Below are positions 14,069 through 15,454 of a DNA stretch of 15,691 nt, one piece after another. Each line of letters starts with the position of its first letter. The stretch's first letter is position 1. This DNA is from a virus. Made by a program: the position numbers and the translations under genes. The notes under the pieces were generated by a model, which had not been told where the DNA came from, ran no database searches, and saw only the letters and a list, made by a program, of their open reading frames with translations. The stretch lies in the IMG/VR virus record IMGVR_UViG_3300005077_001203; one strand, written 5' to 3'.

Positions 14069-15454
14069 ATGTCGGACGAAAAAGTTTTCAGGCTCATTGA
14101 TGCGGAGAGCATTCTGCTCTTTGACAAAGACGAGCCGTTCAACGTGCTTCTCAAGGTTGAGAGCATCGACGATGATACGATTCAGTTCGGGCTTGTGATG
14201 CCAATTGATGTTTTCGTGCAAGGTGTGAGCATCGATGGTGTGACGACCGAGCTGAGCGTCAAATCGTATCCATCTCAGATTCCGTCGGTTATCTACAACA
14301 TCAACTTCGAAACAGAAGGAGGTCGTTGGGATGACGATGAACGAGAGATGACTGTTCGTGTCGGTTCGCTCGGTCTTGAACTTACCCTCCGAAAGGGTGA
14401 CTTGGATGACGTTGACGAAGAAGAAAATCCGAAAGAGTTTGAGAAACTCGAGGATGAATACTTTGCCAGCGTCCAGGTCGTGTTCAACAAGGACAACTTC
14501 CAGGGCGACGTCCAGATCGAGGTCGGCCAGGCCTACGAGCGCTCGATCGTCGTGCAGAACAGGGGCGGCTACACCGCGACCATCGGCGACATCTCGCTTC
14601 TGATCGAGTACCTTTTCATATGCGACGGCGACTGCGTCTTCGGCTGCCTCGACAACCGCGAAGCGCGGCTCTGGGTCAACCGCTGCTGCTGGAAGACGAG
14701 CACGCCGTGGATAGACGGCGGCATCCAGGTCATCTCGGGCGTGGTCTCGACCTTCACGCCGCCCGACTCGGCCTGCTACGAGTGCAAGATGTCCGAGATG
14801 GACTACAAGCTCATCAACATGAAGTACTCGTGCCCCCTGTTGAAGCGCGAGGACATCGTGCAGGGCAAGGTGCCCACGGCGCCGACGGTGGCATCCATCG
14901 CCGGTGCTCTGCAGGTGCAGGAAATGCTCAAGGTCATCCATGGCATTCCGGTGAACGGCGGCGCGGCCCTGATGATGTCGGGCGAGACGAACTCGTTCTA
15001 TACCTCGCGCTTCCAGCGTCGCGACGACTGTCTCAGCCACGAGACCTATCCCGAGCCCACGTCGCTGGATCTGGGTCATTTGACGCCGCTGGGCGAGTAC
15101 TTCGCCGCGGTCCGCCGGACCCTGCCCGACGGCGGCGGCGACGAACCGCTGACGCTCCATCTCGAACGTGACGTGCTGCGCGAACTCTTCTGTCCCCAGT
15201 GCGACTACCGCAAGGAAATCTGGCGGCCCCTCACCTCGGTGAGTCTGCACGAGGGCACCTGCCCCACCTGCGACGAAGTCTGTCAGACCGACATCATCCA
15301 CACGGTCACCGAGGCGGATGCCCACCTGCAGGAACAGTCGCTCGCATCGCTCGGGGTACCAAAATACGAGATACTGAAAGTACAATCCCATGACGGGACC
15401 AGGTTCCATCTGCTCGCGGCCGATCGGACGGCGGCCTTCGGGGCCGCACTATGA
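14069..15454 (+). CDS. Composite ORF: an N-terminal P3 paralog domain of about 135 aa, fused in frame to the C-terminal half of a ThiF/MoeB/E1-like adenylyltransferase plus a C-terminal Cys4 extension. Likely a fusion or chimera; see findings.
   Basis: The N-terminus is paralogous to P1 and P2, with AT-ending codons. From about 14466 the codons are almost all GC-ending. The region [52 protein letters not shown] aligns colinearly with E. coli MoeB [80 protein letters not shown] matches the E1 helix GVLxxxxGVIGSLQAxEAIK. The GxGxxG Rossmann half is absent. C-terminal motifs CPQCDY...CPTCDE. Confidence 0.55.
   Translation: [461 protein letters not shown]

Follow-up and report, generated by a model that had tools for sequence, protein, structure and literature searches.

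Does the last open reading frame (ORF) completed on a 15,691-nucleotide (nt) JGI metagenome contig, present here in full (IMG/VR virus record IMGVR_UViG_3300005077_001203; hereafter, 'the window' is this whole stretch) encode a recent gene fusion, or is it a join that no genome contains? The codon usage of this uninterrupted 461-residue ORF changes abruptly part of the way along, and the sequence beyond the change resembles an E1-like enzyme. Our analysis shows that the ORF is made of three pieces, A, B and C, with two breakpoints, J1 and J2, and we conclude that the feature is most likely not biological. The features of the locus are as follows.

13003–13473, plus strand: paralog 1 of a 155–156-aa orphan family arranged as a tandem array; aligns with the next two genes; singleton protein cluster.
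13568–14035, plus strand: paralog 2 of the same orphan family, complete, 155 aa; identified by BLASTP against the fusion ORF.
14069–15454, plus strand: fusion ORF, 461 aa, uninterrupted.
14069–14467 (end at about 14465), plus strand: segment A, paralog 3 of the orphan family; GC3 0.55, typical of the upstream side.
14463–14468, no strand: breakpoint J1, the composition junction; GC3 change point at 14465, with 9/21 G/C-ending codons before it and 43/43 after it.
14468–14626, plus strand: segment B, coding-like, 53 codons, GC3 0.94; in frame with both neighbours and a member of neither the E1 nor the paralog family.
14594–14634, no strand: breakpoint zone J2, where E1-family homology begins; located by the rise in nucleotide and amino-acid identity.
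14627–15454, plus strand: segment C, which runs from about codon 127 of a ThiF-family E1 through its stop codon and makes up the C-terminal two-thirds of the enzyme (Pfam ThiF).
15495–15691, plus strand: YukD-like ubiquitin-like gene (Ubl), first 65 codons, ended by the contig end (Pfam YukD 4.4e-06, match at 15495–15689).

The abrupt GC3 step in a continuous ORF, which the initial annotation had pointed out, is real. The maximum-likelihood change point lies at nt 14465, with a GC3 of 0.55 on its 5′ side and 0.87 on its 3′ side, and its lnLR of 26.4 was reached by none of 5,000 within-ORF codon shuffles (shuffle maximum, 11.6). The codons that end in G or C number 9 of 21 just before this point and 43 of 43 just after it; were the upstream GC3 to apply, such a run would arise with a probability of about 1e-11. 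Further on there is a second unbroken stretch of 59 such codons; the longest among the 4,398 upstream codons is 18. Part by part, the upstream genes have GC3 values of 0.39–0.68 and the three downstream pieces 0.85–0.94. The proposed comparison of tetranucleotide profiles separates the two sides as well, with r = 0.24 for the last 1,226 nt against the upstream 14.4 kb and r ≥ 0.53 for all 67 upstream windows of equal size. The starting level had been misjudged: the upstream GC3 of 'about 35%' was too low, as the gene stands at about 0.55 and the last 21 codons before the change point at 0.43, with 0.30–0.35 reached in one local window only.

An antisense ORF of 559 aa (13730–15409, minus strand) covers the whole high-GC piece and extends into the upstream part. 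We rejected it as a gene; because its codon phase disagrees with the GC3 periodicity, it is a shadow ORF of the kind typical of high-GC coding DNA.

On the 5′ side of the step, segment A belongs to the tandem orphan array. Its N-terminal motif, M..(E/S)(E/R)KV.(F/Y)R, is common to paralog 1 and the next two genes, and BLASTP aligns paralog 2 with the first 105 aa of the fusion ORF at 30% identity (E 9e-10). Relatives in the array reach about 155 aa; paralog 3 is cut at about residue 133 and is thus about 20–25 residues short. Exhaustive phmmer of A and B together against 1.84 billion protein representatives returned no homologs of segment A.

The E1 homology, previously taken to start at the GC3 step, starts about 160 nt (about 54 codons) further on, at 14627–14635, and the ORF therefore has two breakpoints with a 53-codon piece between them. 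Nucleotide identity to the E1 gene of the closest relative (locus L001) rises from about 0.3 to 0.7–0.8 at 14624–14635, and amino-acid identity climbs across J2 from noise to 81%. Segment C contains the catalytic-Cys and CxxC region, and the GxGxxG nucleotide-binding half is absent. The Pfam ThiF model (PF00899) matches residues 184–321 (2.8e-19) over profile positions 108–236 of 238 only; the NCBIfam ThiF/MoeB models likewise match the window protein from position ~109–121 on, and an intact homolog, P0002, from position 4. The earlier description of an E1 without its Rossmann or ATP-binding half was therefore correct.

What is left of the enzyme is well preserved. Segment C shares 81% identity with P0002 and has lost no family-invariant residue of the C-terminal half, with all invariant columns present across the Mg-binding CLDN Asp, the catalytic-Cys region and the CxxC zinc motifs. 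The pristine state of this segment indicates that it was part of a working gene until it was joined. From the N-terminal Rossmann half with its GxGxxG motif (VVGAGALGNE in the subfamily), no invariant residue occurs in the window protein, and the PADLOC E1 models that match the N-half of P0002 match nothing in it. Without any of its adenylation half, the fusion cannot function as an E1; the ORF lacks the N-terminal feature that defines the E1 family and should be filed as an E1 fragment, not as an E1.

The gene that follows segment C is cut by the contig end, and its product is 97% identical in amino acids to the L001 Ubl. The order of E1 and then Ubl is the same as in loci L001–L005, and the native E1–Ubl intergenic region and ribosome-binding site are retained.

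The two Ubl genes also show a local peculiarity. Over about the first 27 codons (window 15505–15590 against L001 9294–9370) they are almost identical in nucleotides, with the same codon at 23 of 27 conserved residues early in the gene versus 16 of 36 later. The window and L001 operons are 72% identical overall, the L001 genome has a GC3 of 0.50 and the 5′ patch of its Ubl is GC3-rich; the near-identical patch is absent from L002–L005 (7/26 same codon). Gene conversion, mosaicism or a second mix-up during assembly could each account for this patch.

Segment B, the filler between the breakpoints, spans ~125–160 nt, about one short-read length. The ORF frame alone fits its GC3 periodicity without stops, and its in-register nucleotide identity to the L001 E1 is about 0.3, that is, random. 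No relatives of it were found in the 1.84 billion protein representatives (exhaustive phmmer), in viral or metagenome scans, in plasmids, in 80 planctomycete E1 loci or elsewhere in the window.

Several candidate origins for this part of the ORF were tried and rejected. A loose BLASTP tail aligns residues 85–186 with the E1 N-half and would place the start of E1 homology at residue 85; it is noise, because a hidden Markov model (HMM) of 114 family E1 N-halves scores −0.7 on the first 191 aa of the window protein, below many of 2,000 shuffles. A 10-residue resemblance to I.GDV.TDLG and two 33-nt blastn matches at E1 codons ~110–121 are not significant and lie ~80 nt out of register. An E1 N-half hidden or frameshifted elsewhere in the window was sought by tblastn with three intact E1s, which gave a single high-scoring pair, from 14321 on. 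As a frameshifted E1 remnant, segment B gave only scattered compositional noise in tblastx against the 80 loci; as an internal duplication or inverted copy, it showed no repeats above chance in the window; and as vector or plasmid sequence, it had no match.

Where does the E1 family of segment C normally reside? Our genome scan found at least 581 loci, almost all in Planctomycetota (Isosphaeraceae, Pirellulaceae and Planctomycetaceae), with a few in Riflebacteria and Abditibacteriales. The 3′ piece had been proposed as a query for contiguity with a complete E1 gene, and the answer from its relatives is uniform: in 80 of the 80 genomic loci fetched, the E1 N-half adjoins the C-half in frame, and none is truncated. 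The family is absent from the 2.9 million viral contigs scanned and from GenBank phages. In relatives L001–L005, the genes form an operon of E1, YukD-like Ubl, UQ_con E2 and JAB peptidase, in that order, flanked by housekeeping genes such as those for EF-P, asparaginase and glycerate kinase. The Ubl proteins are 75–97% identical across Planctomycetota families (L001–L005 and L008–L087).

Iyer, Burroughs and Aravind first catalogued prokaryotic E1–Ubl–E2–JAB operons in 2006 (PMC1779556). The Bil/Bub-type systems of bacterial ubiquitination are relatives of these operons (PMC10557695), and anti-phage activity is known for related E1/E2/JAB/Ubl operons (PMC10557695, PMC1779556). Segment C and the next gene resemble such operons in pairing a ThiF-family E1 with a beta-grasp YukD-like Ubl, but the window E1 lacks its adenylation half and the contig stops inside the Ubl, ahead of the place where the E2 and JAB genes would come. 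PADLOC finds weak BilD and CBASS E1–E2 similarity in P0002, in the N-half only, and because these matches are only weak the operon of the relatives is not a demonstrated defence system. Compared with Bil/Bub-type systems, this operon is chromosomal, widespread in Planctomycetota and housekeeping-flanked. Since its neighbours are housekeeping genes and it does not lie in defence islands, a core ubiquitin-like system of the cell seems more plausible than one directed against phages.

The upstream 14.4 kb have a different character. This part is orphan-rich, coded on one strand, contains several tandem paralogs and has a GC content of 0.48. Its sole gene with outside relatives in the annotated collections searched is the following.

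9245–12079, plus strand: major-vault-protein (MVP)-like gene, 944 aa (Pfam MVP_shoulder 2.7e-21, Vault_3 1.5e-08).

Those relatives are found only in huge phages: by tblastn, the MVP-like protein is 37.6% identical over 81% (E 3e-152) to the uncultured huge phages LR756500/1/3 (462–735 kb). The gene has a GC of 0.56 and a GC3 of 0.68, above its neighbours. No further synteny with LR756500/1/3 was detected, the other upstream ORFs had no match in GenBank phages and none that was convincing in Pfam or PHROGs, and scans of the 20 largest ORFs against Pfam and PHROGs revealed no integrase. The upstream body is probably a fragment of a large phage or similar mobile element.

Two further cases of duplication were seen in this body. 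The genes at 397–1263 and 1287–2081 (both plus strand) are tandem paralogs (E 6e-48) with an N-terminal hydrophobic segment in each, and their C-terminal ~85 residues are about 80% identical (PEYEV.TESGKVFALSLK...LLRRLKNAGFIKVVEYR). In the gene at 12191–12862 (plus strand), a module of ~55 residues is duplicated internally at 47% identity (E 3e-16); its pattern, ...VDDG.S...V.V.V...G.P.WL..KF.KSAD....WPP, has no family match.

The fusion occurs once. The fusion protein (cluster P0001) and all neighbouring proteins form singleton clusters confined to this contig. The junction was found on no other contig by exact look-up or by related-locus scans with A and B and with the lineage-specific E1 C-terminus, and neither exact-protein look-ups (the fusion and two upstream genes) nor phmmer with A and B found parent or sibling contigs. 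Word-index protein searches (a 186-aa fragment of A and B, and a 2,848-aa concatenate of upstream ORFs) were empty; these negatives say little, because the window's own proteins are in the collection and yet were not returned. As both parents are themselves unsampled, the non-recurrence of the junction is weak evidence for a chimera.

Taken together, we infer that the last ~1.2 kb were probably joined artefactually to an unrelated 14.4 kb, by a mis-join in the assembly or the library. Most of the contig is a piece of the orphan-rich, one-strand element described above, which is probably a large phage or a similar mobile element. High-GC DNA takes over at nt ~14465, part-way through the third member of the tandem ~155-aa family: ~125–160 nt of filler come first, followed from nt ~14630 by the final two-thirds of a Planctomycetota-type E1 gene and the beginning of the Ubl. 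Reads from two or three genomes were most likely mis-joined in a de Bruijn-graph assembly or by way of chimeric library molecules; no cell would then carry the 461-aa 'fusion protein' as a gene, and it would exist only because three pieces share a reading frame.

Several observations favour such a mis-join. The break is abrupt and extreme, and the foreign piece shows no sign of adapting to the codon preferences upstream. Each side has lost part of a gene, with paralog 3 cut at residue ~133 and the E1 entering at codon ~127, and the two sides differ in affinity (a huge-phage MVP against a Planctomycetota E1). The two breakpoints lie ~160 nt apart around an orphan filler of read length, the E1 half is pristine, and its family is chromosomal, never seen on viral DNA and intact in 80/80 loci. 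The junction has a single occurrence on a single contig, and the foreign piece is terminal, making up 8% of the contig, which ends 1.2 kb past the junction. In its GC3 and tetranucleotide step, cut genes, differing affinities, terminal foreign piece, read-length filler and single occurrence, the window resembles inter-genome chimeric contigs; it departs from them in that both junctions preserve the frame. None of the three parent sequences turned up in any collection searched, which left no parent against which to compare the junctions for shared repeats, k-mers or microhomology. The native frames of all three pieces are kept at both junctions (chance about 1/9), which mildly favours a selected fusion. 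The initial annotation had proposed a junction of two unrelated genomes, by chimera or by very recent recombination; the two affinities and the cut genes bear out the junction, and the pieces number three, not two.

The alternative of a very recent illegitimate recombination, in which a huge-phage-like or mobile element of a planctomycete-like host took up patchwork host DNA (segment B, the 3′ part of the E1 and the Ubl), appears unlikely to us. Such an event would have destroyed the element's own tandem paralog and left a non-functional fusion ORF. Large phages do acquire host genes, the MVP-like gene links the upstream side to huge phages, and the upstream GC of 0.48 is similar to the 0.49 of the organism that carries the nearest E1 relative (L001), so that a phage of a related host is conceivable; the continuous, in-frame ORF and the retained native E1–Ubl intergenic region with its ribosome-binding site also fit. 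However, both genes are truncated and the E1 is without its adenylation half, leaving no evident benefit, and the codon usage of the foreign piece is wholly unadapted to the upstream side. Two breakpoints no more than 160 nt apart, the lack of the E1 family on any of 2.9 million viral contigs or any GenBank phage, and the single occurrence speak against it too, and a disruptive, brand-new junction would be an improbable population consensus. The comparison with host-gene capture by huge phages is similarly divided. A phage-like body does adjoin a cellular gene fragment with donor codon usage, but captured genes that persist are normally whole, with phage DNA on both flanks, and here the fragment is non-functional, the far flank lies beyond the contig end and the family is absent from viral collections. 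The E1 also differs from a phage-borne auxiliary gene, which is complete, lies between phage genes and comes from a family that recurs on viral genomes; it is truncated and its family was found on none of the 2.9 million viral contigs.

A functional decoy is a further reading, and we regard it as highly improbable. Here, a phage domain fused to the catalytic-Cys, zinc and C-terminal half of a host E1, co-expressed with a host-like Ubl, would act as a dominant negative that sequesters the Ubl or E2, shutting down a ubiquitin-like (Bil/Bub-type) conjugation pathway with which the host resists phages. The three pieces share one reading frame, the E1 half has lost none of its invariant residues, the Ubl gene comes next at native spacing, related E1/E2/JAB/Ubl operons are anti-phage (PMC10557695, PMC1779556) and PADLOC sees BilD/E1–E2 similarity in the N-half of P0002. 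On the other hand, the fusion has no relatives in any search, its codons, still unadapted, speak against its having been under selection for any time, and the operon of this E1 family sits amid housekeeping genes, unlike a defence island. Half of a Rossmann-type domain (ThiF/MoeB fold) is, moreover, unlikely to fold. An equally slim prospect is a prophage or integrated element that sits in the E1 of a high-GC planctomycete and whose right-hand attachment junction the contig spans. One side does look like a mobile element and the other chromosomal, and the junction is inside a host gene. However, site-specific integration does not cut the element's own gene, and this junction also cuts paralog 3; segment B would need to be native host sequence fused to E1 codon 127, which is seen in 0 of 80 genomes; no integrase was recognised in the 20 largest ORFs (Pfam, PHROGs); and a GC gap of 0.48 versus ~0.63 between element and host would be unusual. 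Finally, the reading that no junction exists and that one native gene simply varies in composition along its length is effectively refuted. Its support, the uninterrupted ORF and the BLASTP tail from residues 85–186 to the E1 N-half, gives way to the N-half HMM score, to the homology of residues 1–105 with the upstream paralog instead, and to the 43 consecutive G/C-ending codons.

For the artefactual join that we favour, the practical consequence is that binning, host prediction and gene-family work should start from a contig divided at about 14465. Independently of the junction, vault-protein homologs on giant phage-like elements may merit a separate look. If the junction is an artefact, P0001 is a spurious entry, and the tie it makes between ubiquitin-like conjugation and a phage-like orphan family is false. 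If it were true, the window would be the first virus-like element with part of a Planctomycetota-type E1–Ubl operon, and a hint of viral interference with the conjugation pathway that this operon encodes.
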